A DNA stretch of 26,387 nucleotides from Candidatus Omnitrophica bacterium UBA1562 (GCA_002322525.1 DCOU01000038.1:1-26387), one strand, 5' to 3'; positions 1 to 26,259 are shown, numbered from the stretch's first letter. Numbers and translations are program-made. The notes: generated by a model from the letters alone, not told the origin.

Positions 1-411
1 ATTATCTATTCTTTTCCCTTTAACTATTCCGCAATGACCATGAGAGGTATATCCACACAGACAAACGTCTGTAATTACAATTAAATCTTTAAATCTTTCC
101 TTTACTGCTCTTACCGCCTTTTGAACAATACCATCCTCTCTATAAGCAGATGAACCTACCTCATCTTTTGTTTTAGGGATTCCGAATAAAAGTATGGACT
201 CTATCCCCGTGCCTTTAGGTATATCTCTAAGTAACTTGTCAATTGAAAAATGATATACGCCGGGCATGGACTTAATGGGCTCTTTTATACCTTTACCTTC
301 CACCACAAAGTAAGGCAAAATAATATTTTTAGGATGAAGTTGGGTTTCGCTTATCCAATCCCGGACAAAGCTTTTTTCTCTTAGTCTTCTTAAGTCTATA
401 ACAGCCTGCAT
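1..411 (-). CDS. hemB: Porphobilinogen synthase (ALA dehydratase), 5' part; runs off the window
   Basis: Not in the ORF track. Manual translation from ATG at 411: MQAVIDLRRLREKSFVRDWISET...PIKSMPGVYHFS...ILLFGIP...DGIVQKAVR...ITDVCLCGYTSHGHCGIV. It has the N-terminal RRLR motif and the Zn-binding CxCx7C motif, and follows cobA-hemD. Confidence 0.95.
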   Translation of the reverse strand, partial: MQAVIDLRRLREKSFVRDWISETQLHPKNIILPYFVVEGKGIKEPIKSMPGVYHFSIDKLLRDIPKGTGIESILLFGIPKTKDEVGSSAYREDGIVQKAVRAVKERFKDLIVITDVCLCGYTSHGHCGIVKGKRIDN

Positions 412-1919
412 CTTTTGGCCTCTCTTAGAGTAACTTTGCCTATACATCTAACTTTTACATTTTTGGGCACCTTTTTATATTTTTTTTTAAAATTCCTTAC
501 CGTTGAAGGGCTGGTAAACATAATCTCATCAAAGGTATTCAAGTCTAAGTCTGGCAAATCCTTGGGTATTACATTTCTATAAGCAAAACTGGTAGTTATT
601 TTTGCTCCTAATCTTTTGAATGCCTTCTCCAAACCCTTATCCGAAATATCCGAACGGGGCAAAAATATCCTCTTGCCTCTTATATCTAAGCTCTTAAATT
701 CCCTAACCAAGCCTTCCGAGGACTCTTTCTGGGGTAGCAAATCCGCTATAATTCCAAAGCCCAAGAGTCTATTTTTTGTAGAATTCCCGATAGCCGCAAT
801 CTTTATGCCAGCAAGTATTCTTGAATCATAGCTTATCGCACTTAATCTCTTAAAGAAGTATTCGACTGCATATCTGCTTACAAAGACTATCCAATCAAAA
901 TTTCTAATGTCTTTTAAATAATTATCAAATTCCTTATAGTCATCTAAGGGCTCGATCTTAATTAAAGGAAGATAAAAATAAGTGCCTCTTATAAAAAATC
1001 TTTCCTGCGACAGGCCAGTAAACAAAATTCTTTTGTTTTTCTTAAGCCAATTAAATTCTTTCTCTAACTTTACCCCGTTAGAGATACATTTGGCTGAAAC
1101 TAATTTACGGTCACCTGAAGGTGACCTATCTCTAACGGGGTTTACTACTTTGCCAACAATAACTATTGCCGGCGGCTTTAAACTTTGCTCTTTGGCCTTT
1201 TGCGCAATATCTTTTAAGGTGCCGATTAAAATTCTCTGGGTTATTAAACTGGCATTCTCGACTATCGCCACCGGTGTATTCTCATCCTTTCCTGCACCAA
1301 GTAAACGGGAAACTATTTCATCCAAATTCTCTACTGCCATATATAAAACTATGGTGCCAATTTTTGCTATGCTTTCCCAGTTAAGTAAACTTTCTTTCTT
1401 TATCGGTTCCTCATGGCCGGTAACAAAAACACAACTGGAAGCAAATCTTCTATCGGTCAAAGGAATGCCCGAAAATGCACTTGCGGCACTGGCAGAAGTA
1501 ACTCCTGGCACAATCTCAAATTCTATTTTTTCTTTGGTTAAAGCCTTGAGTTCCTGGGAACACCTGCTAAATATTGTGGGGTCGCCATTCTTTAGCCTTG
1601 CCACCTTTTTCCCTTCTTTAGCTTTCTTAATTATTAAGCTATTTATTTTATCCTGATGCACCAAAAATCCGTTAGAGTATCTTTCTTTACCCCGCCCTTT
1701 ATCAATATACAGCGTCTCTTTGTAGGAAAAAGGGCTGGGTTTACCTAACTTATCGCAACATAATAATTGCGCGCCATCCTTTGCATATTCCAAAAGACTC
1801 CTATCCACGAGGTAGTCATAAATAACCACATCCGCTTCTTTAAGAATATTTAATCCTCTCAGCGTTATTAAGTCAGGCTTTCCGGGACCTGCTCCAACTA
1901 AATAGACTTTGCCTTTCAT
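396..1919 (-). CDS. cobA: Uroporphyrinogen-III C-methyltransferase / uroporphyrinogen-III synthase fusion (CobA-HemD) carrying two in-frame palindromic insertions
   Basis: Methyltransferase motifs VYLVGAGPG, ARLKNGDP, EIVPGVTSA, GIPLTDR, VTGHE and LYM. C-terminal HemD-like region with FDWIVFVS, IAAIG, FLPRS, YRN, FTSPSTV and CIG. Confidence 0.93.
   Translation of the reverse strand: MKGKVYLVGAGPGKPDLITLRGLNILKEADVVIYDYLVDRSLLEYAKDGAQLLCCDKLGKPSPFSYKETLYIDKGRGKERYSNGFLVHQDKINSLIIKKAKEGKKVARLKNGDPTIFSRCSQELKALTKEKIEFEIVPGVTSASAASAFSGIPLTDRRFASSCVFVTGHEEPIKKESLLNWESIAKIGTIVLYMAVENLDEIVSRLLGAGKDENTPVAIVENASLITQRILIGTLKDIAQKAKEQSLKPPAIVIVGKVVNPVRDRSPSGDRKLVSAKCISNGVKLEKEFNWLKKNKRILFTGLSQERFFIRGTYFYLPLIKIEPLDDYKEFDNYLKDIRNFDWIVFVSRYAVEYFFKRLSAISYDSRILAGIKIAAIGNSTKNRLLGFGIIADLLPQKESSEGLVREFKSLDIRGKRIFLPRSDISDKGLEKAFKRLGAKITTSFAYRNVIPKDLPDLDLNTFDEIMFTSPSTVRNFKKKYKKVPKNVKVRCIGKVTLREAKRCRLL
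1073..1140. mobile_element. 68-bp palindromic MITE-like insertion, in frame in cobA-hemD
   Basis: Perfect 14-bp terminal IR CCCCGTTAGAGATA/TATCTCTAACGGGG and internal hairpin GGTCACCT-GA-AGGTGACC. Flanked by TTTA at 1069-1072 and 1141-1144. 68+4=72 nt adds NPVRDRSPSGDRKLVSAKCISNGV; removal restores GKVVKLEKEF. Confidence 0.9.
1690..1739. mobile_element. 50-bp palindromic MITE-like insertion, in frame in cobA
   Basis: IR CCCCGCCCTTT/AAAGGGCTGGG (1 mismatch), flanked by TTTA at 1686-1689 and 1740-1743. 54 nt adds PSPFSYKETLYIDKGRGK; removal gives DKLGKERYSNGFLVHQDKIN. Confidence 0.85.
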
Positions 1920-2596
1920 AATAAAACAACCTCCCGGGAATCAATTACTGAAAGCAAGTTATGCAGATGTAAATCTTCAGCTCTTGCGACAATGGCTAAA
2001 GACCCCTGCCAAGGATGGGGTTTAAGAATCTCAAATGGTATTCTTTGGGAAATCCTATCTTCCAGCCCCAATCTAATCAAACCAGCGGCAGCAATCACAA
2101 TGGTATCTAAGTCTGTTTCATCAAGTATCTTTAATCTCTCCTCGATATTGCCGCGGATATCTATAATCTGAAAATCCTTTCGATAGTTTTTAAGTTGAAT
2201 CTTACGCCTTAAGCTACTTGTCCCTATTTTTGCGCCCACCTTCAGTTCATCAAGGGTTAGATTATTCTTTGAAACCAAGGCATCGTAAGGATCGATGGAC
2301 TTTGTAATGGCCGCGATAAAAAGTCCGGGCGCCAAATTATCCGGCAAGTCCTTTGCGCTATGTACAACAAAGTCAATTTCACCCTTTAAAAGTGCCTCAT
2401 CTATTTCTCGGGTAAAAAAGTCGCTTCCTTCTATTTGCGATATAGGCGTAAACTTATCCTTATCGCCATATGTATCTATACCTATAATCTCTACATTAAG
2501 ATCGGGGTAGAATTTCTTTAAATTGCTTACCACCTCTTCTACCTGCTTAAGCGCAAGAAGGCTGGTTCTGGTTCCAATACGGTAAGTTTTTGCCAT
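1916..2596 (-). CDS. hemC: Hydroxymethylbilane synthase, short form (domains 1-2 only; no domain 3 or cofactor Cys)
   Basis: IGTRxSxLA, GD, FTREID, VHSAKD, GTSSLRR, IRGN and QG motifs are present. It ends at 226 aa before the GGC motif and has no Cys. ATGA overlap with cobA. Confidence 0.9.
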   Translation of the reverse strand: MAKTYRIGTRTSLLALKQVEEVVSNLKKFYPDLNVEIIGIDTYGDKDKFTPISQIEGSDFFTREIDEALLKGEIDFVVHSAKDLPDNLAPGLFIAAITKSIDPYDALVSKNNLTLDELKVGAKIGTSSLRRKIQLKNYRKDFQIIDIRGNIEERLKILDETDLDTIVIAAAGLIRLGLEDRISQRIPFEILKPHPWQGSLAIVARAEDLHLHNLLSVIDSREVVLL

Positions 2597-3579
2597 AATC
2601 TCTCTGCCTTTATTTTTATGACCTCTTCAATTTTCTTTGCTTCTTCTTTCTTTTTCTCAAAGTTCTTCTTTATTACAGTACCTAAATCTTCTAAACAGAA
2701 AAGCTCAACGCCCATTATATCTTTTACTAGAGGCTCAACATTCCTGGGTAAAGCAAGGTCAACTATAAGAAGCCCGTGATTAATAAGGCCTTCTAAAGTT
2801 TCCTTTTTAATAATAAAATGCGGGCTTGCTGTAGCGGTTATGACTACATCCGCCTTTTTCAAAGACTCTCTTAATCTATCGAATCTTACCGCCGCACCAT
2901 TAATCTCACTTGCCAATGCCTTTGCCTTTTCAAAAGTCCGATTAGAAACAAAGATTACGTTGGGCCTTTCTTTTTTTAGGTACTGCAAAACTAATTCGCT
3001 CACCTTTCCTACTCCAATAATTAAAATATTCTTACTCGAGAGGTTACCCAATCGTCCTTTTATAAAATCTAAAGCCAGGCTTCCTACAGAAATTTTACCT
3101 TCAGATATCTTAGTTTCTTTGTGTATCATCTTGGCGAAAGACAGAGCCTGAATAAATGTTTTCCTCAAAAACTCATCAGCAAAACCAATCTCTCTTGCTT
3201 CAAGATATGCCTGTTTAACTTGCCCTGAAATTTGTGTCTCACCAAGAATCAACGAATCTAGGCCGCAGGTAACCGCAAATAAATGCCTAAGTGCTTCTTT
3301 TGCCTCATATGTATAAAGGTAAGGCAAAAAATTTTTTGTCTCAATTTCATGGTATCGCGAAAGAAAATTTATTATCTGGCCTCTTGCACTTTCGAGATTT
3401 TCTGTGCTAGCATAAATCTCCATTCGATTACAAGTAGAAAGAATAACCGCTCCCTTAAATATTTGCCATTCCTTTAAGAGAAAAAGGGCGTTTTTTAGCC
3501 TCTTTTTAGGAAAGACGAGTCTCTCCCTCAATTCAATTGGACTAAACTTGTGATTTGTGCCAACCACTATTAAGTTCAT
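2539..3579 (-). CDS. hemA: Glutamyl-tRNA reductase (short C-terminus)
   Basis: VVGTNHK, LSTCNRME (catalytic Cys), GLDSLILGETQI, IIGVG NAD(P) motif, NRT, TATASPH and DLALPRNV. Confidence 0.95.
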   Translation of the reverse strand: MNLIVVGTNHKFSPIELRERLVFPKKRLKNALFLLKEWQIFKGAVILSTCNRMEIYASTENLESARGQIINFLSRYHEIETKNFLPYLYTYEAKEALRHLFAVTCGLDSLILGETQISGQVKQAYLEAREIGFADEFLRKTFIQALSFAKMIHKETKISEGKISVGSLALDFIKGRLGNLSSKNILIIGVGKVSELVLQYLKKERPNVIFVSNRTFEKAKALASEINGAAVRFDRLRESLKKADVVITATASPHFIIKKETLEGLINHGLLIVDLALPRNVEPLVKDIMGVELFCLEDLGTVIKKNFEKKKEEAKKIEEVIKIKAERLWQKLTVLEPEPAFLRLSR

Positions 3580-3974
3580 TCTATCTTGACTTCCTCTTCG
3601 TTTATTTTTCCCTCAACAATCTTGAAGGACCTTATGCTCGGGTTATCTTTATCCTTTATTGAAGCAATCACGTACGATGCCTCAGGATAAAAAGCCAATT
3701 CTACATCGTGTTCAGATGGATAAGCCTCTGTCTCAAGATGCGAATGATATATCCCCACCATCTCAAGGCCTAAATTACGTATTTCTTTCATCACTTTGAG
3801 CTGTTCTTTCGGGTCCATAAAGAATGAATTTGGGCTTCTATCTGTATTAGCCATCCTATAAATCTTTATAATCCTGCCTTCTTTACCTGCTAATATCCCG
3901 CAGGCCTCATTAGGAAATTCTCTTTTAGAGTGCTCTATCATCTGCTCAAACAAACTTTTTGCAATATAAATCAT
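3576..3974 (-). CDS. JAB/MPN (Mov34, M67) metalloprotease, Mec/HcyD-like sulfur-carrier processing peptidase
   Basis: PNEACGILAG and GIYHSHLETEAYPSEHD (E...HSH-x7-S-x2-D JAMM motif). Confidence 0.88.
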   Translation of the reverse strand: MIYIAKSLFEQMIEHSKREFPNEACGILAGKEGRIIKIYRMANTDRSPNSFFMDPKEQLKVMKEIRNLGLEMVGIYHSHLETEAYPSEHDVELAFYPEASYVIASIKDKDNPSIRSFKIVEGKINEEEVKIE

Positions 3975-4960
3975 TTTTTAACCCCTAAAAGTAAAAGCAT
4001 AGAATAACAAATTATTATACTTAAGACAGGCGTCAGCATCCAAACCTTCAGGATTTTCTTAGTTATAGGGTGAACCAAGGTCTGGCTATGATTTTTCTCC
4101 TCCTTTGCAGTATGTATGGCCAGAATAGACAAAGAGGAAAACTGGACATAGGGCGCAGGAAGACCCAAAACAGAACATGTAATAATAAAAGTGCTGACTA
4201 CCATGGAAACGATTGAGGCCGATATCGTACCCAAAGGAACAATCTCCTTACTTACGGTATTAAGCACTCCTTTGCCTAAAATAAGCCCTCCTAGACCAAA
4301 GAGCAGAGAAAAAATTAAAAAACCCGGTCTTGGACTTACTATATTTGCCGCCATAAGAGGCCCTACGACATTAGCCACATTATTAGTGCCAATACCAAAT
4401 GCGCTATAGAAGTCAGTGAAAAGTGTCCATTTTTTAAGCTTGGCCTCGTGGCAGAAAAATTTTTCATAGAATCTTAAGTTCTTCTGCCGCGGCGGATAAA
4501 TCTTGCGCGCAATAAAATAAGTAAGAAAATACGATAAAAGAGATACACCAACCCAGACAAAAATCAAATACCTGATCAGAGAAAAATTTAAAGATTTGAA
4601 ATATAACCCTGCCCCCACAAAAGAGCTAATGATAATTATGCTTGTTGACTGTGGTATTTTAAGGACGTTTGCCAAAAATAATGCGATACAAGCTGAAAAA
4701 AGAATCACTAAAACCACTGGTTGAGTAATAAGTTCTGGAGCGATAATTTTACTGCTTAATGTCTTTGCAACCCTTCCCCCTACAAGCAACGCCCCTATAA
4801 GCACAAATATAGTAAAGAGAACTACGGCCCTATTTTTTTTAATAATGTTACTTCCCACGCTAGGAGCAAATGACACTGCTAAACCTGAGGCCCCCATGTT
4901 CATCGCCCAAAATATAGAAATAATTATAAGGAGTAATATCTCGATCATTTTCTCACTCAA
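3971..4960 (-). CDS. PiT-family anion permease; probably a sulfate permease (CysP-like) given its context
   Basis: Repeated PiT signatures (AMNMGASG...; GIGTNNVANVVG), multiple TM segments, and position directly after cysH. The start may be the ATG at 4948 instead. Confidence 0.8.
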   Translation of the reverse strand: MSEKMIEILLLIIISIFWAMNMGASGLAVSFAPSVGSNIIKKNRAVVLFTIFVLIGALLVGGRVAKTLSSKIIAPELITQPVVLVILFSACIALFLANVLKIPQSTSIIIISSFVGAGLYFKSLNFSLIRYLIFVWVGVSLLSYFLTYFIARKIYPPRQKNLRFYEKFFCHEAKLKKWTLFTDFYSAFGIGTNNVANVVGPLMAANIVSPRPGFLIFSLLFGLGGLILGKGVLNTVSKEIVPLGTISASIVSMVVSTFIITCSVLGLPAPYVQFSSLSILAIHTAKEEKNHSQTLVHPITKKILKVWMLTPVLSIIICYSMLLLLGVKK

Positions 4961-5679
4961 ATCCCATCACCAGCCACGTTCTTTAGTGGCCGGGTATGGA
5001 TTCCGCATTCGCCGCCGCATTTGCTTGTGCCAATCCAACGGCCAGAGCGTTCGTCTTCTTCGTTAGTAATCCTGGTGCAGGGTGCGCAACCTAAAGACCT
5101 GTAACCTTGTCCGTAAAGAGGATTCACCTTTACTCCGTTGAGAGCCAGGTATTGCCAAACTTCTCTTTCCTTCCAAACAAGAATTGGATTCAGCTTAATC
5201 AAACCTTTATCCCGCTCTTCAACCTCTTTAAAGTCTGTGCGCGTCCTTCCTTCTGTACAACGCAAACCTGTAACCCAGCACTTGACTCCCATCTCTTCAA
5301 TTGCTCTGCGGATAGGTTCTACCTTTAAAATATCGCAGCATTTATCTGGGTCTGTTTCATAAAGTTTATCTGGTATCTCTGCATCGCTTTTATAAATTTT
5401 AATTTCAGGGTATCTAACTACTGTTTCATGCATAAATTGAACAGTCTCTTTTGGTTTAAACCTTGTGGTAATAATAAAACCTCTGATTTTTGGGCTAACT
5501 TTTTTTGCCAGATCCCAGACTGTTACAGAATCCTTGCCCAGACTATTAGCAACTACCAAGCCATCACCATATTTTTCATATGCCTCTTTTGTGAGTGCTA
5601 AGGACCTCTCTACTTTTTGTTTAAAATTCAAAGTTTCTACCAAGCTTTTAATATCATCCTGGTTGTTTAATAAACTCAT
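4957..5679 (-). CDS. cysH: Adenylylsulfate (APS/PAPS) reductase, [4Fe-4S]-type
   Basis: SLGKDS, KCCDILKVEP, WVTGLR, KLNPI, GYRSLGCAPCT, RSGRW and ECGIH. The CC...CxxC ligand set is typical of APS reductases. Confidence 0.93.
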   Translation of the reverse strand: MSLLNNQDDIKSLVETLNFKQKVERSLALTKEAYEKYGDGLVVANSLGKDSVTVWDLAKKVSPKIRGFIITTRFKPKETVQFMHETVVRYPEIKIYKSDAEIPDKLYETDPDKCCDILKVEPIRRAIEEMGVKCWVTGLRCTEGRTRTDFKEVEERDKGLIKLNPILVWKEREVWQYLALNGVKVNPLYGQGYRSLGCAPCTRITNEEDERSGRWIGTSKCGGECGIHTRPLKNVAGDGI

Positions 5680-5694
5680 TTGACTGCTCCCTCC

Positions 5695-6132
5695 TTAAAT
5701 TTGGTAAACAATCGTTTCTTTTTGCGACTTTACCTGTTTGGCTAAATCCTCAAAGGTTATATTGTCGATTATATTCGAAGTACAGCGCGTAACCTCCCGC
5801 CATATGTTCCTAAAAATACATTTATATATATCTTTGCAGCCCGAATAGTTCCGTTCAATGCAAGCTAAAGGTTCAATAGGGCCATCTATAAATCTGACAA
5901 CATCGCCCAGTTTTATTTGCAAAGGTGATTTGACTAAAAGATAACCTCCGACTTTACCCCTGCGACTTTCCACAAATCCGCCCCTTTTTAAATCCAGCAA
6001 CACCTGTTCTAAGAATTTTAGGGGTATATCTGCATGCTTGGCCAGATCATGAATGGTCACTAACTCTCCATAATGCAAGGATAAATCCAAAATTGCCTTT
6101 AATGCGTAGTCTCCTTTGTAGGTTATGTGCAT
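5695..6132 (-). CDS. Rrf2-family transcriptional regulator (IscR/CymR-like, three Cys)
   Basis: DYALKAILDL, LEQVL, VESRRGKVGGYLL, and C-x7-C-x5-C in the C-terminal half. Confidence 0.93.
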   Translation of the reverse strand: MHITYKGDYALKAILDLSLHYGELVTIHDLAKHADIPLKFLEQVLLDLKRGGFVESRRGKVGGYLLVKSPLQIKLGDVVRFIDGPIEPLACIERNYSGCKDIYKCIFRNIWREVTRCTSNIIDNITFEDLAKQVKSQKETIVYQI

Positions 6133-6156
6133 AGTCGTTGCTTCCCCTTCTTGTAT

Positions 6157-6206
6157 ATTAACTCTATTAACATAGTAGAGTATAATCTAAAAATAGAAAT
6201 TGTCAA
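6157..6206 (-). promoter_or_regulatory. Sigma70-type promoter with overlapping Rrf2 operator
   Basis: On the - strand: TTGACA (6206-6201), 16 nt, TATACT (6184-6179). Inverted repeat ACTCTA-N9-TAGAGT (6161-6181). 19/25 match to the IscR type-1 consensus ATASYYGACTRWWWYAGTCRRSTAT. Confidence 0.72.
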
Positions 6207-6211
6207 GTATT

Positions 6212-6335
6212 TTTTAGAGATAAAACTGACCATTGCCCCTGCCAATAAAAATACGGGAATAAAGCAGGCCAGAATATGTAAAGCAATGTATTCTTTTAAA
6301 GCTAAAAATCCTCCAAAGATTAATTCTTTGATCAT
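6212..6335 (-). pseudogene. 5' remnant of a DUF318 (ArsP-like) permease
   Basis: MIKELIFGGFLALKEYIALHILACFIPVFLLAGAMVSFISK resembles the permease N-terminus. The frame then runs into the promoter of the next operon and loses similarity. Confidence 0.65.
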
Positions 6336-6343
6336 TATTTGTC

Positions 6344-6778
6344 TTAGGTGGTAAATTGATGTTGGGACAAGTATCTGAATGCGCTCAGTGCGGCTTTAGC
6401 ACCTTCTCCTGCGGCAGTGATAATCTGCTTTTCGGGTACATCGGTAACATCTCCGGCAGCAAAGATACCCGTAATATTGGTTTCGTAGGCAGATTTGTTA
6501 GTTTTCACCCAAACTTTATCCTCTATTTTTTTAAGCTCAATTACTTCTTCGTTTTCTTTTAGGGCAATCTCAAATTTGCGCATATGTTCCTCAAACTTAG
6601 CTGCCAAATCCGGTCCTGTAATAAACTGATAACCTGTATAATTCTCTATATCACCGCTCAGCGCTGCCTGGCCACCGATGTCTTTGGTAATAACCAAGAG
6701 GCTCATTCTTTTACGTGCTGCGTAGACTGCCGCGGTTATCCCTGCCGGCCCTGCACCGATAATGATTAAGTCATACAT
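6344..6778 (-). pseudogene. trxB: Thioredoxin reductase with an in-frame internal deletion (NADPH domain and CxxC absent)
   Basis: The N-terminus ([20 protein letters not shown]) is joined at ...KSAYET|[13 protein letters not shown]... to the C-terminus ([14 protein letters not shown]). It is 144 aa versus about 300 for the family. Confidence 0.85.
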
Positions 6779-6780
6779 AT

Positions 6781-7017
6781 CTATAATCCCAGTGCGCTTT
6801 TTATTCTTTCTTTGTCAAATCCTACAATGATTTCACCTTCGATGTCCAAAACCGACACGCCCATTTGGCCGGATTTTTGCACCATTTCCTCCGCAGCTTG
6901 CTGATTATTTGAAACATCAATATCTTCAAAAGTTATATTGTTGTCCTTTAAGAATTGCTTAGTCCTAATGCACCAGGGACAGATAGGGGTACTATAGATT
7001 TTTACTGTCTTATTCAT
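6781..7017 (-). CDS. Glutaredoxin-like protein (NrdH/YruB type)
   Basis: [21 protein letters not shown] and IIVGFD. Adjacent to trxB. Confidence 0.92.
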
Positions 7018-7032
7018 ATTTTTCTCTTTATC

Positions 7033-7512
7033 TTAAGTTAAATTTCTCTTCAAATCGGACAAGATTTTTAAATGACCCTGCTCCTGCGTAATTAAGGCAT
7101 CCACAATCTTGAGGTCATATTCTGGCACTACCTTTTTCATACCTTCATAAAAAACGATGGAATCCTTCTCAAACCCTATACCCATATTCATAGCTTCTTG
7201 GTCGCTTTTTATAGTCTTGGCTATCTCTTTTCCTTTATCTTTTTGGGTAAATACATATTCGCTGGCTAAAGCGTTCATATAGGCAAAATATTCATCGGCA
7301 TCCAAACCTGATGGCTCATATTTTTCTGTTTTATTTAAAATCTCTTGAAAAGTTTTAATATGTTTTTCCTCTTCGCCGGCTAAATATTTAAATATCTCAG
7401 AGGCTTTTTGATTTTTTGATTGGCTGGACAATGTATTATAAAAATCCCTCCCATTTTTTTCGATCTGAATTCCTAATTTTACTATCTCACTACCGGCAAA
7501 TATGTTGTCCAT
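7033..7512 (-). CDS. Ferritin-like / rubrerythrin-like diiron protein without a rubredoxin domain
   Basis: Start reassigned to the ATG at 7512 (RBS GAGGAGG). Motifs: GIQIEKNGRDFY, EEEKH, FEKDSIVFY and QEQGH. Confidence 0.88.
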   Translation of the reverse strand: MDNIFAGSEIVKLGIQIEKNGRDFYNTLSSQSKNQKASEIFKYLAGEEEKHIKTFQEILNKTEKYEPSGLDADEYFAYMNALASEYVFTQKDKGKEIAKTIKSDQEAMNMGIGFEKDSIVFYEGMKKVVPEYDLKIVDALITQEQGHLKILSDLKRNLT

Positions 7513-7523
7513 CAACTTCCTCC

Positions 7524-8099
7524 TCAATAATTTTCGCAAAGGAGCTCGTAAAATCCTTGCGGATGGGCACAGGCAGGACATTCTTTAGGCGCTTCTTTGC
7601 CTTCGTGGACATATCCGCAATTTCGGCATTTCCATTTAACCACCGTATCCTTTTTAAACACCTTACCTTCCTTTACATTCCTGAATAATTTTCTGTATCG
7701 TATTTCATGTTGCTCTTCTACTTCTGCTATCTCCTTAAACTGATTAGCTACTTCTTCAAAGCCCTCTTTTCTTGCTGTCTCTTCTGCCTCTTTGTAAAGT
7801 CTTGTCCATTCAAGATTTTCACCGTCTCCAGCGGCTTTCAGATTTGCCGCAGTATCACCCATCAGACCAGCTGGATAACTGGCTCTAATCTCTACCTCCC
7901 CACCTTCTAAAAACCTAAAAAACCTCTTGGCGTGCTCTTTTTCATTATCAGCGGTCTCTAAAAATATTGCGGCTATTTGTTCATAGCCAGCATTTTTCGC
8001 CACAGAAGCAAAATAGGTATAGCGATTTCTTGCCTGAGATTCTCCAGCAAAAGAGGCAAGAAGGTTCTTCTCTGTTTTTGTCCCTTTCAAACTTTTCAT
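7524..8099 (-). CDS. rbr: Rubrerythrin
   Basis: AFAGESQARNRY-like start (SFAGESQARNRY), ENEKEH-like motif (DNEKEHA), GENLEW, VEEQHE, and C-terminal rubredoxin CRNCGY...CPACAH. Confidence 0.96.
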   Translation of the reverse strand: MKSLKGTKTEKNLLASFAGESQARNRYTYFASVAKNAGYEQIAAIFLETADNEKEHAKRFFRFLEGGEVEIRASYPAGLMGDTAANLKAAGDGENLEWTRLYKEAEETARKEGFEEVANQFKEIAEVEEQHEIRYRKLFRNVKEGKVFKKDTVVKWKCRNCGYVHEGKEAPKECPACAHPQGFYELLCENY

Positions 8100-8126
8100 C
8101 TTTTCACCCCCTTGTCTATGATTTTT

Positions 8127-8207
8127 TTAAAATATGCCTCGCATATTAAGATACAACAAAGTAGGGAATATTACAACTGCTTTCTGTCCGCATTGATTAC
8201 AAAACAT
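8127..8207 (-). pseudogene. Possible gene stub MFCNQCGQKA... (hcp-like or zinc-ribbon N-terminus)
   Basis: An RBS-like AGGAAG precedes the ATG at 8207. The 26-codon ORF has a recognisable CxxC only in its first 10 residues. Confidence 0.35.
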
Positions 8208-8218
8208 CTTTTGCTTCC

Positions 8219-8939
8219 TTATAAGTATATCTTTTCTGCCAAGTCCTTACCCGCCTGAGTAAGAAATATCTTATTAAGTAACGCCGCGGTTTTTTCTTTA
8301 TCTTTGCTGTCCACTTCATCCTTTAAATTCACCAGCCAGTCCGCATCGTATAATACCTTAAAATTTTGCGTATTGATTTTGCCAGGGGTATGATGCTGGG
8401 CGATAATTTCGCAAATCTCATCAATATCTTCTTTTTTAAACCCGACCTTAAGCAGGATAATTCTCGCAATCTCTGGACCCTCCTTTTCCTGAAAATGACC
8501 TGCGCTTGAGCCATATTTTTCTTCTGCCACCTTTATTCCCATATCATGCAGGATACTTGCGGGAATAACGATATACCAGTCTGCCTTTTCTTGTTTTAAG
8601 AGTTCCTCGGCAAAATGCATCACGTTTTTGGCGTGGTTTATCCGTTTTATATCACTCCCAAAATACTCTTCTAACTCTTTCAGGAGTTTTTGTTTTGTGG
8701 TTATAACTTTATTGCGCATATATTTGCTGTAGACCTTAAGACCCCAGACATCCCTGGGCATACCTACACTAGTCAAGGCAGCTTTGGCCTTCCTCGCGGA
8801 GAATAGTAGTTTTACAATGCAGGCAGGTTGCTTTAATCTCATCTGTCCATATCTCTATTTCTTGCAAACAGGATGGACATTTTATAATTTCCGGTTCAGG
8901 TTGTCTAAACCTTTGCGCTCCCGGACAGTTAGAAATCAC
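8219..8939 (-). pseudogene. Cys-rich (Zn-ribbon-like) domain + HD phosphohydrolase, disrupted by a TAG and a +1 frameshift
   Basis: GTG at 8939 overlaps the hcp stop. It reads MISNCPGAQRFRQPEPEIIKCPSCLQEIEIWTDEIKATCLHCK...SCLD*(8771-8769)CRYAQGCLG. An extra G in CTGGGGT (about 8741-8745) then shifts the frame; removing it gives CLGLKVYSKYMRNK and the HD domain (RINHA, ILHDMG, HHT, DADW). Confidence 0.82.
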
Positions 8940-10216: not shown

Positions 10217-10228
10217 AAGAGCACCTCC

Positions 10229-11128
10229 TTAAATGAAGCCACAATTTACTGAACGAAGTGAACGTAAATTGTAGGGCTGAATTTTTACATTTCCCTTGAT
10301 ACCTATAGTAACTTCTTTAAAAGGTATTTTCTTCCCAGATAAATCTATTGCCTCTTTTACAATATGTACCAATCCAAAGCAACAAGGTACTTCCATATGA
10401 ACGCAAGTTATAGATTTTATATTGTTATTTTTAATAATCTGGGTAAGCTTTTCTTGGTAAAATTGAATATCATCTAACTTGGGACAGCCAATCAGTAAAA
10501 TCTTTCCTTTTAATAAATCTTGGTGAAAATCCGCATAGGCAAAAGGAACGCAATCAGCAGCGATCAAAAGATCAGCGTTTTCCAGATATGACGCCTGTGG
10601 CGGAACAAGCATAATCTGAACAGGCCAGGTTTTAAGCTGAGATTCCTGCTTTGCTCCTGTTTTCTTTTTTGTTAGAATGCTCTCTTTCTTGCTAAAATCC
10701 ATAACCTTAGAGCTGGGGCAACCGGAAAGGACAGAGATAGGATGTTGCTGTTTTCCAGATGAAGTGGTTTCTTTCAAGGGAATTTCTATGTTTTTTTCTT
10801 TTAGATAATCTATTGCCTGCTTAAGATATTTATCCTGGTTATGTTCTTTAAGGTGCTCAAAGTGAGCCTTTATTACGTTTTTCCCCTGCCTTATAATATT
10901 TTCCATAACTTTATTCTCATCGTAGGGCTCCGCTTCCCTTTCCTCTATAGTAATTGCACCTTGTGGACAGTGGCCAATGCAAGCGCCCAGACCATCACAA
11001 AATAAACCACTAATTAACCGTGCCTTATCATCAATAATCTGTAACGCCCCCTCGGGACAGTTAGGAATACATAAGCCGCACCCGTTACATTTTTTCTCAT
11101 CAATCTTTATTATCTTTCTTTTTGCCAT
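10229..11128 (-). CDS. 2x[4Fe-4S] ferredoxin-domain protein commonly found beside hcp
   Basis: CNGCGLCIPNCP and CDGLGACIGHCP, followed by GCP, WPVQI, AADC, GCPKLD and MEVPCC motifs. Confidence 0.9.
   Translation of the reverse strand: MAKRKIIKIDEKKCNGCGLCIPNCPEGALQIIDDKARLISGLFCDGLGACIGHCPQGAITIEEREAEPYDENKVMENIIRQGKNVIKAHFEHLKEHNQDKYLKQAIDYLKEKNIEIPLKETTSSGKQQHPISVLSGCPSSKVMDFSKKESILTKKKTGAKQESQLKTWPVQIMLVPPQASYLENADLLIAADCVPFAYADFHQDLLKGKILLIGCPKLDDIQFYQEKLTQIIKNNNIKSITCVHMEVPCCFGLVHIVKEAIDLSGKKIPFKEVTIGIKGNVKIQPYNLRSLRSVNCGFI
10238..10277. mobile_element. 40-bp palindromic element at the 3' end of the ferredoxin gene (tentative member of the same class)
   Basis: GCC-ACAATTTAC...GTAAATTGT-AGGGC, flanked by TGAA at 10234-10237 and 10278-10281. 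It supplies the atypical tail QPYNLRSLRSVNCGFI. Confidence 0.55.
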
Positions 11129-11131
11129 AAG

Positions 11132-11536
11132 TTAACTCCTCTTTAATAAGGAAGCTATGGTAATGGATTCTAATTTTGACGCTACATATTTCTCAATACC
11201 GTCTATTTTTCTTTTTAGTGGACAGGTATTCCTATTTGGACAGAGCTTCTTTTTAAAGATACATTCATTTAATTTTAATGGGCCCTGAAATATCTTTATT
11301 AAATCAACCAAAAATATCTTATTTACTGGAAGAGCTAAACTAAAGCCACCGCCATAGCCCTTGGAGGCCTTAAGAATACCCTTATTATGCAATGTTTGAA
11401 GGATCTTTCTCAAAAAAGGCCGGGGTATTTTCAATTCTTTTACTAAAGTTCCTACAGGGACTATTCTGGCTTTAGAATTTGCTATAAAGCAGAGCGCTCT
11501 TACAGCATAATCGGTATTACGCGTTATTAACTTCAT
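11132..11536 (-). CDS. Rrf2-family regulator (NsrR/IscR-like, three Cys), probably leaderless
   Basis: Start reassigned to MKLITRNTDYA at 11536. Motifs: LRKILQTL, ASKGYGGGFSL and C-x6-C-x5-C. Confidence 0.9.
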   Translation of the reverse strand: MKLITRNTDYAVRALCFIANSKARIVPVGTLVKELKIPRPFLRKILQTLHNKGILKASKGYGGGFSLALPVNKIFLVDLIKIFQGPLKLNECIFKKKLCPNRNTCPLKRKIDGIEKYVASKLESITIASLLKRS

Positions 11537-11542
11537 AAAGTA

Positions 11543-11570
11543 ATGATACCATATTAGTATCATATGTCAA
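11543..11570 (-). promoter_or_regulatory. Sigma70-type promoter with a 7-7-7 palindromic operator
   Basis: TTGACA (11570-11565), 16 nt, TATCAT (11548-11543), with the ATG 6 nt further on. Perfect IR ATGATAC-N7-GTATCAT (11543-11563). Confidence 0.75.
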
Positions 11571-11589
11571 GAAAAAAATATGATTTATT

Positions 11590-12257
11590 TTATTTCTTGT
11601 TCTTCAAGGTTTCGAGAACAGCGTTTGAGGCATTAGCAACAAACAGAGAGGAAATAAAGAGGCCGTATGCTGGTATAAACTTAAATACTAAAAATGCGGT
11701 TATTCCTGCAATGCTGCCAAAAGTAAACCCCGTTACACCCCACCCTGAAGTGAGGCATTCTGGGTGTAACGGGGTAAAACCTTTGGCTAGCCCAAGGCCT
11801 GATGTCTTGGGTTCAAGGATTAATCTGCTGGGTAAGCAATATATATCCCAAGGGCTATTATCAAGTAGATATTCGACTCTATGTTCCAGGTAAGGGGAAT
11901 CTTAAAAAGCGTAGCAGTAAAGAGCGCAAAGTTTGCCGGATTAAAGATGTGCCGCTCTTTATATCGGACAATGTTCTTAGAGATAATCGCCAATAGAGAA
12001 AAAATAAACAGGAAATACCAGGATTGGTGATAATCGATAATGCCTGCTACAATAAATCCAGAGATTATCGCACTCCTAGGTTTAACCCTTTGGTGAAAAA
12101 GAAATCGTTTAATAATAAAATCGCTGCTCGCAGCAATAAAGATACCTCCCAATACCCAGAGACTGAAACGCGGGCTTTCTTGAGGTAGTTTGACAAGAAA
12201 AAGAACACTTAATAGAATTATTAACTGATTTCTTTTATCGCTTAAAAATTTCCTCAC
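11590..12257 (-). pseudogene. Stand-alone RnfD/NqrB-like membrane protein, broken by an internal deletion/frameshift near 11835
   Basis: Frame 1 from the GTG at 12257: SAIISGFIVA...AIISKNI...RHIFNPANF, stopping at 11820. Frame 2: LILEPKTSGLG...GFTFGSIAG..., ending at TAA 11590. The expected middle segment appears missing. Confidence 0.75.
11728..11774. mobile_element. 47-bp palindromic MITE-like insertion, in frame in the RnfD-like gene
   Basis: Perfect 13-bp IR CCCCGTTACACCC/GGGTGTAACGGGG, flanked by TAAA at 11724-11727 and 11775-11778. 51 nt equals 17 codons with no stop on the - strand. Confidence 0.9.
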
Positions 12258-12362
12258 CCCGTTACAAATTTTATATACCTTTGTTTCGCTGCAATTACAT
12301 CCTTCCATTGTCATTTCAAAATCACTTTTATATTTTAGTATTTATCAGAATTTGTAACGGGG
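12257..12362. mobile_element. 106-bp palindromic MITE-like insertion at a stop/start overlap
   Basis: Perfect 14-bp IR CCCCGTTACAAATT/AATTTGTAACGGGG, flanked by CTCA at 12253-12256 and 12363-12366. Removal restores the GAGTGAGGAAA overlap (TGA stop / GTG start). Confidence 0.9.
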
Positions 12363-12363
12363 C

Positions 12364-12882
12364 TCACTCTTTGACTACTAACATTGCCTTCATCGTATTA
12401 TGGCCTTTGCCGCAATATATAGAGCACAAAATGTCAAATTCGCCATTTTTGTCTGCTACAAATTCTATCCTCTGCGTCTGGTCTTTTTTTACCGGCACAT
12501 TTATATTATATTCTTCAATATAGACTCCGTGTGGGACATCGCGAGATATAGCAAGTATTTTTGCGATATCACCTTTTTTAACTTCAATTACCTCGGGCGA
12601 GAAACCAAACTGATAAGCCTCTAAATTAAATTCTTTTATTTTTGTAATATACTTTTGCGGCTCTTTTTTAAACTCCTCTATGCACATCGGGCAGCAGAAA
12701 TAATAGGTCTTGCCCTCATAGGTATAGGAGTATTCTTTTGAGGCTGGTTCATGTATCACAGGGCAGATGCCTAAATTTTGTTGCACCTTACTTGCCTCTC
12801 GCATCATATGATGTCCTTCATTGGCATAAGTCAAAGTCAATCCTAAGGCCCATATTAAAATTATATTGAATATTAATCTCAT
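12364..12882 (-). CDS. Secreted YHS-domain + CuA-type cupredoxin protein
   Basis: Signal peptide, HHMM, a YHS motif (CPV...[24 protein letters not shown]), then DVPHG...[12 protein letters not shown] (H...C-x3-C-x3-H-x2-M CuA ligand pattern). RBS AGGGGGG. Confidence 0.88.
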
Positions 12883-12896
12883 TTTATACCCCCCCT

Positions 12897-13229
12897 TTAG
12901 ATTAAAGAAAAAATATAGCCCAATACTAATGAACTAAGCGAGATGAATCCTAAATAAATCAATAAAATCTTCATTCCAAATTCTTTTTTCAGAACCAATA
13001 TTGTCCCATAACTGGTAATTGGGCCGGCTAATAAAAGAACCCTACCTGCACCCTCACTCAACCCCTGTTTTATAAAGGCATCTACCAAAGGAACAGTGGC
13101 AGTTGAGCAGATATACATCAAAAGGCCAAATACCAAAACAAAGAGATATCCCAAGAACCCTCAGCCGCCTTTTTTAAACAAAAATAACATCATCACCGCG
13201 ATTAATATTACACCTAACCATCCCGTCAT
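12897..13229 (-). pseudogene. Chimeric remnant: short membrane peptide, in-frame TGA, then the C-terminal part of a DUF318 permease
   Basis: ATG at 13229 reads MTGWLGVILIAVMMLFLFKKGG-TGA(13163-13161)-GFLGYLFVLVFGLLMYICSTATVPLVDAFIKQGLSEGAGRVLLLAGPITSYG... all in one frame. The second part matches the permease C-terminal MYxC...P...GP motif. Confidence 0.65.
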
Positions 13230-13240
13230 TTAGACTCTTT

Positions 13241-15715: not shown

Positions 15716-15719
15716 AGGT

Positions 15720-24943: not shown

Positions 24944-26259
24944 CTCTTCACCTCGATTAATTGCAGTCCTACTATACGTTCCAAGTCCGCCAGGTTCATA
25001 TTATACTCCACTAATGCCTTATAATAATCCATCTTTGTTTCAATCAACATCCGTTCATTATCCAAGAGCATCATTATATTGCCTTTGCCCGAACGATATC
25101 CGGAAAGCGAAGCCCGAATAGAGCTCTCTAATAAAGGTATCTGATTATCCTTATATAGAGCAATCTTATTTTGGGCAATAGAAACCTTGGTTGCCAAATC
25201 TTTAGTCTGAGACAATGCCATATTCTTCATTGCCTGATAGCTGGCTTTCGCTTCCTCTAAATTTGTAATCGCCTCTTTTACCTCATAACGCTGTTTTGTC
25301 CAGAACCAAAAGGGGAGGGTAAATGCCATCATCAAATCCCAGGGGCCTATCCCGCCGGCGGTAAATCCCCTTAAACCTATCTCTGCCATTAAATCCGGGA
25401 AGAAGCTCCGTTTGGCTAATGACTTGGCGTATTTGTTCTTTTCTATGGCATAGGAGAACATAAGTAGCTCCGGCTGATTCTCTATGGTAAGCCGATACAG
25501 AGAATCTATATCTACCTTAAAAGATGCGTCTTCTTCTAATTCAACTGCACCCAACGACGCTTCCGGTTCCCGGTTTAACAAGGTATTCAACCGGGTTCTC
25601 TTGGCGGATTGCCCTTCCTTTAGATTCCGGATATGCGTGGAGAGGCTGGCGATCTCCAGATTTATTTTAAAAAGCTCTTCCTGAGGAATATCCCCGATAA
25701 TATATTTTGCCTCAGCAATCTTGGCGATATTTTTTAAGAAAGCAAGGCTGGCTTCGTTTAATTCCGTTTCTTTATAGTTCATAAATAAATCATAATAAGC
25801 ATTCTTAACTTCATTTATAACGTCCAATTCTTTATTTTTATAATCTGCGGAAAACATCTGGGATTCTATAAGCGCAATCTTTCCTTTTAAAGATAACTTA
25901 CCAAATAAGGGAAACATTTGACTAACAGAAAGCATTCTATCTTCTGGCATGGTGCGGTCTAATTTTAAAGTTCCTTTTTGTATCTTCATAAAAGAAAAAC
26001 CCACGGTTGGATTATCAAGTGACTTTGCCTGGGGAACTCTTGCCAAGGATGCCTCCCAGCGTTTTTTTGCTGCAAGAATCTCAGGGTTATTCTGGATTGC
26101 CTCTTTAAGCAAAGAGTCCAAAGAAAGCAACTCATCCGAATATAAGATAGTATTACTCAGAATAAATATGTTAACCAAAAATAAAATAATTCCCGTTAGA
26201 AATTTTTTCCTAATAGAGGATTTGCATATTTCTAAAGGGATAAATATTTTTCTTATCAT
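24940..26259 (-). CDS. TolC-family outer-membrane efflux protein (CusC/CzcC-like) with a palindromic insertion in its signal peptide
   Basis: A...NPEILAA, SQMFPLFGKL, VKNAY, QPEL, FFPDL and Y...G...LLD...; first gene of the CBA triad. Confidence 0.9.
   Translation of the reverse strand: MIRKIFIPLEICKSSIRKKFLTGIILFLVNIFILSNTILYSDELLSLDSLLKEAIQNNPEILAAKKRWEASLARVPQAKSLDNPTVGFSFMKIQKGTLKLDRTMPEDRMLSVSQMFPLFGKLSLKGKIALIESQMFSADYKNKELDVINEVKNAYYDLFMNYKETELNEASLAFLKNIAKIAEAKYIIGDIPQEELFKINLEIASLSTHIRNLKEGQSAKRTRLNTLLNREPEASLGAVELEEDASFKVDIDSLYRLTIENQPELLMFSYAIEKNKYAKSLAKRSFFPDLMAEIGLRGFTAGGIGPWDLMMAFTLPFWFWTKQRYEVKEAITNLEEAKASYQAMKNMALSQTKDLATKVSIAQNKIALYKDNQIPLLESSIRASLSGYRSGKGNIMMLLDNERMLIETKMDYYKALVEYNMNLADLERIVGLQLIEVKR
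26191..26240. mobile_element. 50-bp palindromic MITE-like insertion, in frame in the TolC signal peptide
   Basis: IR TCCCGTTAGAAAT/ATTTCTAAAGGGA (1 mismatch), with flanks TAAT/TAAA (1 mismatch). 54 nt adds PLEICKSSIRKKFLTGII; removal gives MIRKIFILFLVNIFILSNTILYS. Confidence 0.8.

Follow-up and report, generated by a model that had tools for sequence, protein, structure and literature searches.

The palindromic inserts of the window (the whole stretch of DNA analyzed, 26,387 nucleotides) are rather likely to be gene-less, MITE-like miniatures of a very small mobile element, with a GIY-YIG nuclease as the candidate mobilizing enzyme. Each copy is an insertion that has duplicated 4 bp of the asymmetric target R|TRAA, and full-length relatives of ~265-345 bp carry the same inverted repeats and 4-bp duplications as the miniatures, together with a single gene. 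This gene encodes a single-domain GIY-YIG nuclease of ~90 residues, with the catalytic Tyr, Tyr, Arg, and Glu in place.

Copies in the window and their host genes

Five copies are clear, with coordinates, inverted repeats, and flanks exactly as in the preliminary description, and one further hairpin is tentative:

Copy 1, element 1073-1140 (1069..1144 with flanks): 68 bp, TTTA/TTTA, 14-bp inverted repeat CCCCGTTAGAGATA
Copy 2, element 1690-1739 (1686..1743 with flanks): 50 bp, TTTA/TTTA, repeat CCCCGCCCTTT with one mismatch
Host gene of copies 1 and 2, 396..1919, minus strand: CobA (TP_methylase)-HemD fusion, 507 residues (PF00590, 1.3e-53; PF02602, 1.7e-42)
Copy 3, element 11728-11774 (11724..11778 with flanks): 47 bp, TAAA/TAAA, repeat CCCCGTTACACCC
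Copy 4, element 12257-12362 (12253..12366 with flanks): 106 bp, CTCA/CTCA, repeat CCCCGTTACAAATT, at a stop/start junction
Copy 5, element 26191-26240 (26187..26244 with flanks): 50 bp, TAAT/TAAA, old and degenerate, TCCCGTTAGAAAT / ATTTCTAAAGGGA
Host gene of copy 5, 24940..26259, minus strand: outer-membrane efflux protein of the OEP/TolC family (PF02321, 6.1e-45)
Tentative copy, hairpin 10238-10277 (10234..10281 with flanks): 40 bp, TGAA/TGAA, GCCACAATTTAC / GTAAATTGTAGGGC

On the minus strand, copy 1 reads in frame as 24 added residues (NPVRDRSPSGDRKLVSAKCISNGV) where the CobA domain ends, and copy 2 as 18 residues (about PSPFSYKETLYIDKGRGK) within a CobA loop, where the window protein has 32 residues versus 9 in the solved methyltransferase 2ybq. 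Copy 2 belongs to the CCCCGCCC repeat subfamily, which is distinct from the others and has ~35 copies. Neither insert is present in the paralog on contig C151 (70% identity) or in three orthologs (G025, G001, and G026); the empty site of copy 1 has a single TAAA.

Copy 3 had been placed in a reading frame, and minus frame 2 is indeed open across it (TPLHPECLTSGWGVTGF); it lies toward the C-terminal end of a gene for an RnfD-like membrane protein, but this gene is frameshifted near 11820-11850. An empty-site allele in groundwater run X8 skips exactly 51 nt (47+4), as seen in one contig whose shorter side spans 41 nt. At copy 4, read on the minus strand, TGAG preserves the stop of a YHS-cupredoxin gene, while the last G of the element joins TG to form a new GTG start for the RnfD-like gene; its length plus 4 (110) is not a multiple of three, as expected for a position outside a reading frame. 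Read in frame, copy 5 adds 18 residues (PLEICKSSIRKKFLTGI region) to the signal peptide of the TolC-like protein, and orthologs in the congeners G006 and G001 lack it, with a single TTTA at the site. Empty sites with one copy of the tetramer, which the preliminary description had proposed to seek in relatives, were thus found for four copies (1, 2, 3, and 5) in a paralog, orthologs, or a population contig. As single strands, all five clear copies fold far better than shuffled sequences (z from -2.5 to -7.0).

The tentative copy lies at the junction of a ferredoxin-like and a prismane gene. It is flanked by TGAA and has an imperfect inverted repeat of 12 bp (folding z -4.7), but it has no CCCCG terminus and was not recovered by the genome-wide family scans. 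A possible member of the family, it faintly resembles CCCCCACACCAATTA, a fourth repeat type seen in other genomes.

A dispersed family with an asymmetric target

The genome, an Omnitrophota assembly of 1.40 Mb that is 74% complete, holds ~157 dispersed elements that have (C/T)CCCG...CGGG(G/A) as their ends and lie between identical 4-bp flanks. They range from perfect palindromes of 26 bp up to ~140 bp, have terminal inverted repeats of 11-15 bp, and fall into three repeat types: CCCCGTTAGAAAT, CCCCGCCCTTyCT, and CCCCGCACCTTyT. The commonest miniatures are of the CCCCGTTA type (n=94), a sequence that occurs 100 times in the genome and 91 times as its complement, against ~12 expected. When 11-nt inverted repeats between identical 4-bp flanks were sought without regard to motif, 208 structures emerged, ~155 of which begin with (C/T)CCCG. 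The interiors had been called unrelated; this does not hold for the 53-bp type, which has a recognizable, though very diverged, interior consensus, and the higher conservation of the repeats is in part an artifact of the copy-finding procedure.

Insertion favors TAAA (84 sites versus 3.7 expected) and TGAA (40 versus 1.4). Among GTTA-type copies, 78 of 87 have identical flanks, over 16 different tetramers and always 4 bp long, which bears out the earlier claim of true target duplications. Terminal inverted repeats of ~10-15 bp or more, and a duplication of fixed length whose sequence differs between sites, are those of MITEs. The target is asymmetric whereas the element ends are symmetric, which is more in keeping with strand-specific recognition than with a transpososome of two-fold symmetry.

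The family had also been described as active or recently active, and three observations agree with the empty sites in this respect. Elements are inserted into one another at C117:12374-12453 and C136:188-329; there has been a lineage-specific burst, with 69 copies in this genome versus 0-5 in six congeners; and an identical 53-bp copy occupies non-homologous loci in this genome (G000) and in G006.

Full-length elements and the candidate enzyme

The preliminary description had suggested looking for an IS or RAYT-like transposase bounded by the same inverted repeats. None was found in this genome and ~640 kb of fetched loci, and the sole protein found between family repeats is instead the ~90-residue GIY-YIG nuclease. 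One full-length element is present in this genome:

Full-length element, G000:C93:355-643: 289 bp, TGAA flanks, CCCCGCCC type, encoding P0001

P0001 (98 residues) matches PF01541 at 1.8e-13, and its best PDB match is 1zg2, a UPF0213 protein (3.8e-5); among NCBIfam models there is only a sub-threshold match to an intron endonuclease. Residues Y15, Y26, R36, and E72 are present, with a spacing, as read from the sequence, like that of Y6/Y17/E64 in SsnA. The element sits on a start codon, and the site is empty and uninterrupted in three congeners. A 287-bp element of the CCCCGTTAGAAAT type in G054 carries the same gene. Of the 30 best homolog loci across Omnitrophota, ~26 have one of the family repeat types on either side, 265-345 bp apart, while no inverted repeats were found at four; nuclease genes in MAGs labelled Edwardsbacteria and Nitrospinota are bounded likewise. 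No family repeats surround the two other GIY-YIG genes of this genome, and the 74%-complete assembly has no full-length partner for the CCCCGTTA and CCCCGCAC types, its sole full-length element being of the CCCCGCCC type.

Four different repeat types each enclose the nuclease alone. Repeat type clusters on the nuclease tree, with 8 changes versus 17.4 in shuffles (none of 200 shuffles as low), and inverted-repeat type and nuclease clade diversify together, crossing host phyla; linkage alone would also produce such clustering.

We infer that the GIY-YIG nuclease is the mobilizing enzyme. It would recognize the element as a single-strand hairpin or cruciform with a stem starting CCCC:GGGG and, by analogy with the published Ssn nucleases, cut a few bases outside the hairpin. 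Host repair and ligation would finish the move, and the miniatures would be mobilized in trans. GIY-YIG nucleases are DNA hydrolases with no known strand-joining activity, and the nuclease model therefore leaves the 4-bp duplication unaccounted for. It is possible, if a shade short of probable, that the ~290-bp units are self-sufficient transposons with a 90-residue Ssn-like GIY-YIG single-strand nuclease as transposase: hairpin movers that insert at R|TRAA with a 4-nt duplication, use host start codons, and give rise to gene-less hairpins by the hundreds, altering proteins, start sites, and promoters in Omnitrophota, CPR, and further uncultivated phyla.

Alternative mobilizing enzymes

A RAYT or an IS-type DDE transposase is probably not the mobilizing enzyme. 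We consider it unlikely that the elements are ordinary MITEs moved in trans by the DDE transposase of an unassembled insertion sequence, with the GIY-YIG gene as a passenger or a selfish colonizer of the element's loop. Terminal inverted repeats with a fixed-length duplication are a DDE hallmark, and 4-bp duplications with CC(C) termini recall IS1380 and piggyBac. The genome is also incomplete, insertion sequences frequently go unassembled, and two IS1182-like transposases are present. The ends of the IS1182-like copies, however, are unrelated to the family: the C11 copy begins GAGGCTGTCCGAC, and the sole candidate repeat near the C104 copy is GAGAGCTCTGAAAAA. A search of two element-bearing genomes (G434, 25 copies; G041, 17 copies) yielded no DUF772-type transposase, PF13701 and PF13843 have no match in this genome, and no transposase lies between family repeats 300-6000 bp apart in this genome and ~640 kb of fetched loci. 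Each of four repeat types encloses the nuclease only. The asymmetric target also speaks against a DDE enzyme, and 26-bp copies would be too short for bending into a paired-end complex.

Far less probable is a spread of REP-like hairpins by a RAYT or IS200-type Y1 transposase, in which case the flanking tetramer would be a recognition site and not a duplication. The elements do form hairpins, the genome has two Y1_Tnp genes, and the target is a strand-specific tetramer, as in IS200/IS605 (PMC3333891). Yet at least 16 different tetramers are found in matching pairs on the two sides of identical inverted repeats, which is not expected from a guide-based cleavage site; on C89 the Y1 gene sits between GTAG-tagged hairpins of its own that differ from those of the family, no family hairpin occurs within 500 bp of the Y1 gene on C58, and the full-length elements carry the GIY-YIG gene instead of a Y1 gene.

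Reading frames and start codons

In long ORFs genome-wide, 64 of 67 internal copies are open and have a length that, plus 4, is a multiple of three, versus 50 of 90 copies elsewhere (Fisher 5.5e-9), so that the frame bias reported for the window extends to the genome. Only 43% of elements lie inside ORFs, versus 76% of random TRAA sites, a depletion, and those inside are 26-68 bp long. In this compact genome, as the statistics show, selection retains only harmless insertions. The ORF-internal copies are probably translated as extra peptide segments, judging from their sequence; the peptides encoded are hydrophilic and turn-rich (NPVRN...ISNGV, FTPLE...LTGF, KPRP...GRGK).

Start codons of the form (A/G)TGAx hold 24 copies, and each of these start-site candidates has A or G directly before it. 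At ATGAA and ATGAG, the duplicated TGA(A/G) and the last G of the element rebuild the start as a new GTG. A Shine-Dalgarno-like run lies within the repeat (GGAAGG, GAAGGTG) or just inside it (AAGGAGG). Promoter-like or ribosome-binding motifs were seen on some copies.

The frame bias bears on a further reading, slightly less probable again than a Y1 transposase, in which the inserts are removed from DNA or RNA before protein synthesis, like introns or the internal eliminated sequences of ciliates. Perfect hairpins with 4-bp repeats would permit precise excision, and copy 3 is exactly missing in one population contig. Were inserts removed before translation, length and stop codons would not matter, and the bias therefore counts against removal, as do old degenerate copies that are still in frame (e.g., 26191-26240). 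We give hardly any credence to immobile host regulatory hairpins (terminators, attenuators, uptake or restriction signals) flanked by repeats by chance, for although some copies have the expression motifs above and Ssn-type repeats modulate transformation in Neisseria (PMC11893778), there are empty sites in paralogs, orthologs, and the population, nested copies, a patchy, burst-like spread among congeners, and 43% of copies inside ORFs.

Significance

Regardless of mechanism, the family illustrates how ultra-compact genomes house mobile DNA. The only survivors are copies that add codons, rebuild start codons, or bring their own ribosome-binding sites, and hence a steady supply of new surface loops and expression signals. 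If the nuclease moves the elements, DNA transposition would gain a new enzymatic route, autonomous mobile DNA would have a lower bound on its size, and the recently described Ssn nucleases would acquire a natural function. If the ~290-bp units are self-sufficient, they would be among the smallest known transposons, GIY-YIG would join the DNA transposases as roughly their fifth catalytic class, and it would be clear how Ssn-type repeats arose. By analogy, enzymes that cut beside programmable hairpins may be of practical interest for single-stranded DNA tools.

Comparison with known systems

Among published systems, the Ssn nuclease/hairpin-repeat family comes closest, and for in-frame residence the Rickettsia palindromic elements do. 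We compare the Omnitrophota elements with five systems:

(i) IS1380 and piggyBac make 4-bp duplications, have 13-bp terminal repeats starting CCC, and can excise seamlessly, all in common with the Omnitrophota elements, but the piggyBac target TTAA is palindromic whereas TRAA is not. Derivation from this group is not supported, the PF13701/PF13843 DDE transposase not being found in this genome; in five element-rich genomes, PF13701 had no match in three and weak partial matches in two.

(ii) REP/REPIN-RAYT systems likewise have short hairpins, probably handled single-stranded, and a small enzyme gene tied to its own repeats. REPs, however, are extragenic, lack the target duplications seen here, and depend on an HUH tyrosine transposase, and the RAYT-like genes of this genome are accompanied by other hairpins or none.

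(iii) Classical bacterial MITEs derived from DDE insertion sequences, such as Correia/NEMIS, ERIC, and Nezha (review PMC10969869; survey PMC11602168), share terminal inverted repeats, target duplication, absence of a gene, many copies, and occasional promoter or in-frame effects. Unlike theirs, the Omnitrophota parent element has no DDE transposase and the target is asymmetric. The smallest copies (26 bp) fall below the 50-800 bp quoted for prokaryotic MITEs, and ~90% of surveyed MITEs are intergenic, whereas 43% of the Omnitrophota copies are ORF-internal.

(iv) Rickettsia palindromic elements (RPE-1 to RPE-10, ~100-150 bp; Ogata et al. 2000, 2002, as reviewed in PMC10969869) also lie in frame within unrelated genes of a small genome, housekeeping genes in their case, and yield extra peptides, as the sequence predicts here; the analogy drawn in the preliminary description is a fitting one. 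They are longer than the ORF copies of 26-68 bp and their hosts are unrelated, and the two are likened by behavior, not by sequence; the Omnitrophota elements, unlike RPEs, have clear 4-bp duplications and a candidate enzyme.

(v) The Ssn system is known from SsnA of Neisseria meningitidis and its SRM/NTS hairpin repeats (Chenal et al. 2025, PMC11893778). Its repeats flank the nuclease gene and number in the hundreds, and the authors remarked on an IS-like architecture, with mobility as a hypothesis only (PMC11893778). Both systems have a single-domain GIY-YIG protein (~94 residues in Ssn), a gene-bracketing repeat that is also dispersed in tens to hundreds of copies, and a hairpin sequence peculiar to each nuclease clade. 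The Ssn class is cd10448, to which P0001 is likened by size, catalytic residues, and repeats, its best solved relative being the UPF0213 protein 1zg2. Ssn nucleases cut outside the hairpin, in variable flanking DNA (PMC11893778), and the Omnitrophota nuclease is assumed to do the same. The Ssn gene lies between two separate hairpins, whereas the Omnitrophota gene lies inside the two arms of one inverted repeat, and only 2% of NTS copies are ORF-internal, versus 43% here. What the Ssn paper offers as a mobility hypothesis is documented in the Omnitrophota elements as insertion with a 4-bp duplication, empty sites, and nesting.

Hairpin-Ended Miniatures in the Window and Genome

The genome to which the window belongs, an Omnitrophota genome by kinship, comprises 1.40 Mb in 159 contigs with 39.8% G+C, and the window is the entire contig C39. 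The copies it holds are as follows:

1073-1140: copy 1, in the CobA-HemD fusion gene
1690-1739: copy 2, in the same gene
11728-11774: copy 3, in the RnfD-like gene
12257-12362: copy 4, at the YHS-cupredoxin/RnfD-like junction
26191-26240: copy 5, in the TolC-like gene
10238-10277: tentative copy

The coordinates assigned to the five clear copies in the preliminary description proved exact; each copy has inverted repeats of 13-15 bp and 4-bp direct repeats at its flanks, and as single strands all five fold much better than shuffled sequences. The tentative copy has a hairpin and TGAA flanks but lacks the family terminus. An Rfam search of the window returned no known RNA family.

Genome-wide counts are 100 for CCCCGTTA and 91 for its complement (about 12 expected); the two are separated by 28-131 bp in 84 exact pairs, and the commonest element length is 53 bp. 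A motif-blind scan for 11-nt inverted repeats with at most one mismatch and identical 4-bp flanks, 26-160 bp in length, recovered 208 structures, about 155 of them starting with (C/T)CCCG. The copies in the genome, about 157, sum to about 9.1 kb, or roughly one per 8.9 kb, and their inverted repeats fall into three types.

Inverted-repeat types in the genome
CCCCGTTAGAAAT: 94 copies
CCCCGCCCTTyCT: 35 copies, eleven of them near-perfect 26-bp palindromes; includes window copy 2
CCCCGCACCTTyT: 21 copies

Insertion by Target Duplication

Sixteen different tetramers occur as identical flanks among the copies, a variety that argues for true target duplication, and single tetramers are found at empty sites; the duplications are genuine, as the preliminary description held. 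Reconstruction of the target gives R|TRAA (T 88%, R 89%, A 92%, A 96%; preceding purine at 82% of sites), with TAAA used at 84 sites versus 3.7 expected and TGAA at 40 versus 1.4.

Empty sites in the cobA-, tolC-, and rnfD-like genes, which had been proposed as a check, are known for four of the window copies. The 70%-identical CobA-HemD gene of contig C151 lacks copies 1 and 2, as do the orthologs of three relatives, and a single TAAA occupies the copy 1 site; two congeners lack copy 5 in their TolC-like orthologs and have a single TTTA there. At copy 3, exactly 51 nt are skipped in one contig from another groundwater sample, a comparison made on assembler contigs that used one informative joint and left out joints with short sides. 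For copy 4, a DNA search of congeners with the region 11400-13000 found no orthologous locus.

The C151 gene (G000:C151:8418-9809) is a second CobA-HemD gene, 70% identical to window 396-1919 and free of both inserts. Either this gene is a paralog or it sits on a related-strain contig co-binned into the MAG, for which the contamination estimate is 3.8%. Over window 1085-1126, contigs from other samples (runs X8 and X10) match both copy 1 repeats, with one base in place of the 40-bp interior, and continue into unrelated flanking sequence; they are other, shorter family copies in the community and not alleles of the copy 1 site.

Some copies are inserted inside other copies, and strict matches number 69 in the window's genome versus 0, 0, 0, 1, 2, and 5 in six same-genus genomes. 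The family is a lineage-specific burst. An identical 53-bp copy common to this genome and a congener (G006) was considered as an orthologous insertion and rejected; it lies at unrelated loci and, because these are non-homologous, is uninformative on in-situ conservation.

Nuclease-Bearing Units and the Probable Mobilising Enzyme

Relatives of the miniatures, about 290 bp long, carry a GIY-YIG nuclease gene. In genome G054, a 287-bp unit with TTCG flanks holds a gene that begins just within the left repeat, runs through the right one, and is complete except for a frameshift in an A-run. The unit on contig C93 of the window's genome, 289 bp long (G000:C93:351-647 with its flanks), reads TGAA-CCCCGCCCTTCCT...AGGAAGGGCGGGG-TGAA; its 98-codon ORF starts at the host gene's ATG, extends across the left repeat (MNPALPK...), and terminates at a TGA made by the right duplication, where an overlapping GTG restarts the host gene. 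Three congeners have an uninterrupted ...ATGAAGAAT... start at this site, and therefore the gene-bearing unit is an insertion with a 4-bp duplication, as in the miniatures.

Of 401 sampled Omnitrophota genomes, 318 contain homologs of the C93 nuclease; these are often multicopy, and some carry stop codons. At about 26 of the 30 best homolog loci, inverted repeats 265-345 bp apart mark the bounds, belonging to the three local types or to a fourth, CCCCCACACCAATTA; nuclease loci in Edwardsbacteria- and Nitrospinota-labelled MAGs are likewise repeat-bounded. Repeat type clusters strongly on a tree built from 33 nucleases (8 changes versus 17.4 in shuffles), and the topology cuts across host taxonomy. 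The miniatures are linked to these nuclease-bearing elements, and the GIY-YIG nuclease is probably the mobilising enzyme, although its catalysis of movement is something we infer. Two identical 301-bp GIY-YIG units with the repeat CCCCCGACTAA also stand in tandem, 424 bp apart, in an Edwardsbacteria-labelled MAG (G044:C152:248-548 and 672-972; L166/L171).

The main rival holds that an unseen DDE transposase moves the elements and that the nuclease is a passenger. A DDE insertion sequence that might serve as partner was looked for in the genome and none was found: the window's genome has no match to profiles PF13701 or PF13843, and IS1380 and piggyBac partners were set aside with no matches there and weak or none in five element-rich genomes. 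Family repeat pairs 300-6000 bp apart enclose no transposase in this genome or in about 640 kb of further loci, and those with matching flanks, tried as long elements, are all pairs of separate miniatures. Two IS1182-like transposase genes (DUF772 + DDE_Tnp_1_6) are present:

G000:C11:104-1600
C104 (L108:670-2220)

Both were rejected as partners, the element ends being unrelated, and the IS1182-like family was not found in genomes G434 and G041. The C11 copy adjoins a contig end that begins with a GAGGCTGTCCGAC... terminus.

A RAYT mechanism is unlikely: the Y1 genes of the genome have other hairpins or none, and the diversity of paired flanks points to true duplication. The preliminary description had proposed a search for an IS or RAYT-like transposase bounded by the same repeats; none was found, and a nuclease gene lies between them instead. 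One RAYT-like Y1 gene (G000:C89:4094-4465) sits amid several GTAG-tagged hairpins (TGTAGTTGCC...; L200:1370-1456, 1733-1809, 3155-3249) and appears to form a REP/RAYT system of its own within this genome.

Residence in Reading Frames

Copies were counted as ORF-internal when their removal in silico left a junction 20 or more codons within a stop-to-stop frame that was itself no shorter than 150 codons. This holds for 67 of 157 copies versus 76% of random TRAA sites, and gene-internal insertions are therefore under-represented. Length plus 4 is divisible by three and the frame open in 64 of the 67, versus 50 of the 90 remaining copies (Fisher 5.5e-9), which extends to the whole genome the frame bias first described in the window. 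Together with the duplications and empty sites, these statistics support the original interpretation of mobile miniatures filtered by frame. They also suggest that the inserts are translated, and the alternative, that inserts are removed before translation, is contradicted by the same fractions. The encoded peptides are hydrophilic, with turn formers abundant at both ends (NPVRN...ISNGV, FTPLE...LTGF, YPVRN...ISNGVY, KPRP...GRGK).

One copy lies within a prepilin leader (L010:2900-2964 and the adjoining minus-strand ORF), where ...FLTGF is encoded by the right repeat, which together with the duplicated TTTA restores the G|FTLIEL cleavage motif. At window 11780-11860, the N-terminal part of the RnfD/NqrB-like gene (stop at 11820) and the C-terminal part bearing copy 3 differ in frame; a frameshift, a misassembly, or decay of the gene could account for this.

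Residence at Start Codons and Promoter-Like Copies

Twenty-four copies sit on (A/G)TGAx and are followed by an ORF of at least 60 codons from a GTG composed of the element's last G and the duplicated TG; A or G precedes in 24/24, the candidates including a few ORF-internal in-frame copies that do not mark genuine starts. Within the CCCCGCCC and CCCCGCAC repeats, GGAAGG or GAAGGTG lies a few bases 5' of the rebuilt GTG, and CCCCGTTA-type copies at start sites have AAGGAGG immediately inside the right repeat. Window copy 4 belongs to this class, on a former GTGA stop/start overlap with both signals rebuilt. One subtype is always at ATGAA:

G000 C117:9485-9537
C63:22567-22618
C87:1304-1354
C157:4255-4302
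C13:1863-1915
C70:10047-10095

Its layout is left repeat, short loop, inner right-repeat copy, AAGGAGG, and right repeat. The old ATG keeps a 5-codon mini-ORF (MNPVRN-stop), the rebuilt GTG lies behind the element's own ribosome-binding site, and the alternative hairpins might act as translation regulators. The subtype is also amplified in G041. Other copies have promoter-like features:

G000:C87:28364-28409
G000:C17:5543
L114:144
L115:145-192

In these, the flank and first bases read TTGACC or TTGCCC, and the interior contains TGnTAnnAT-like extended -10 boxes some 16-17 bp further downstream, so that these copies have the appearance of subtypes that carry or form promoters. Copies of 72-79 bp in a Parcubacteria-labelled MAG resemble them.

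Distribution

The exact 53-bp form occurs at more than 96 loci in MAGs named Omnitrophota, Planctomycetota, Clostridia, Edwardsbacteria, Nitrospinota, Parcubacteria, and others. Several 'Planctomycetia'-named MAGs are Omnitrophota by kinship, and isolated single matches may be binning errors. Subtypes of their own are amplified in the MAGs labelled Parcubacteria (25 copies), Nitrospinota (14), and Edwardsbacteria (15). The 13-mer repeat is patchy among Omnitrophota (91 of 401 genomes), and viral contigs gave only 8 matches.

Comparison with Published Systems

A full-text literature search for the inverted-repeat sequence gave nothing relevant, and in the literature on GIY-YIG with inverted repeats, target duplications, or MITEs, we found no description of such a transposon. 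The in-frame pattern is the same as that described for Rickettsia palindromic elements (PMC10969869). Among published systems, the Ssn family comes closest: its repeats lie on either side of the gene and are scattered in hundreds of copies, and the authors of its description, who remarked on an IS-like layout, suggested that it is a domesticated mobile element (PMC11893778). The present family differs from Ssn or extends beyond it in three respects:

(i) Insertion has direct comparative evidence, in the form of duplications, empty sites, nesting, and a burst.

(ii) Unlike in Ssn, the architecture is a single hairpin with the gene in its loop.

(iii) The 4-bp target is asymmetric, and residence in frame and at start codons is massive.
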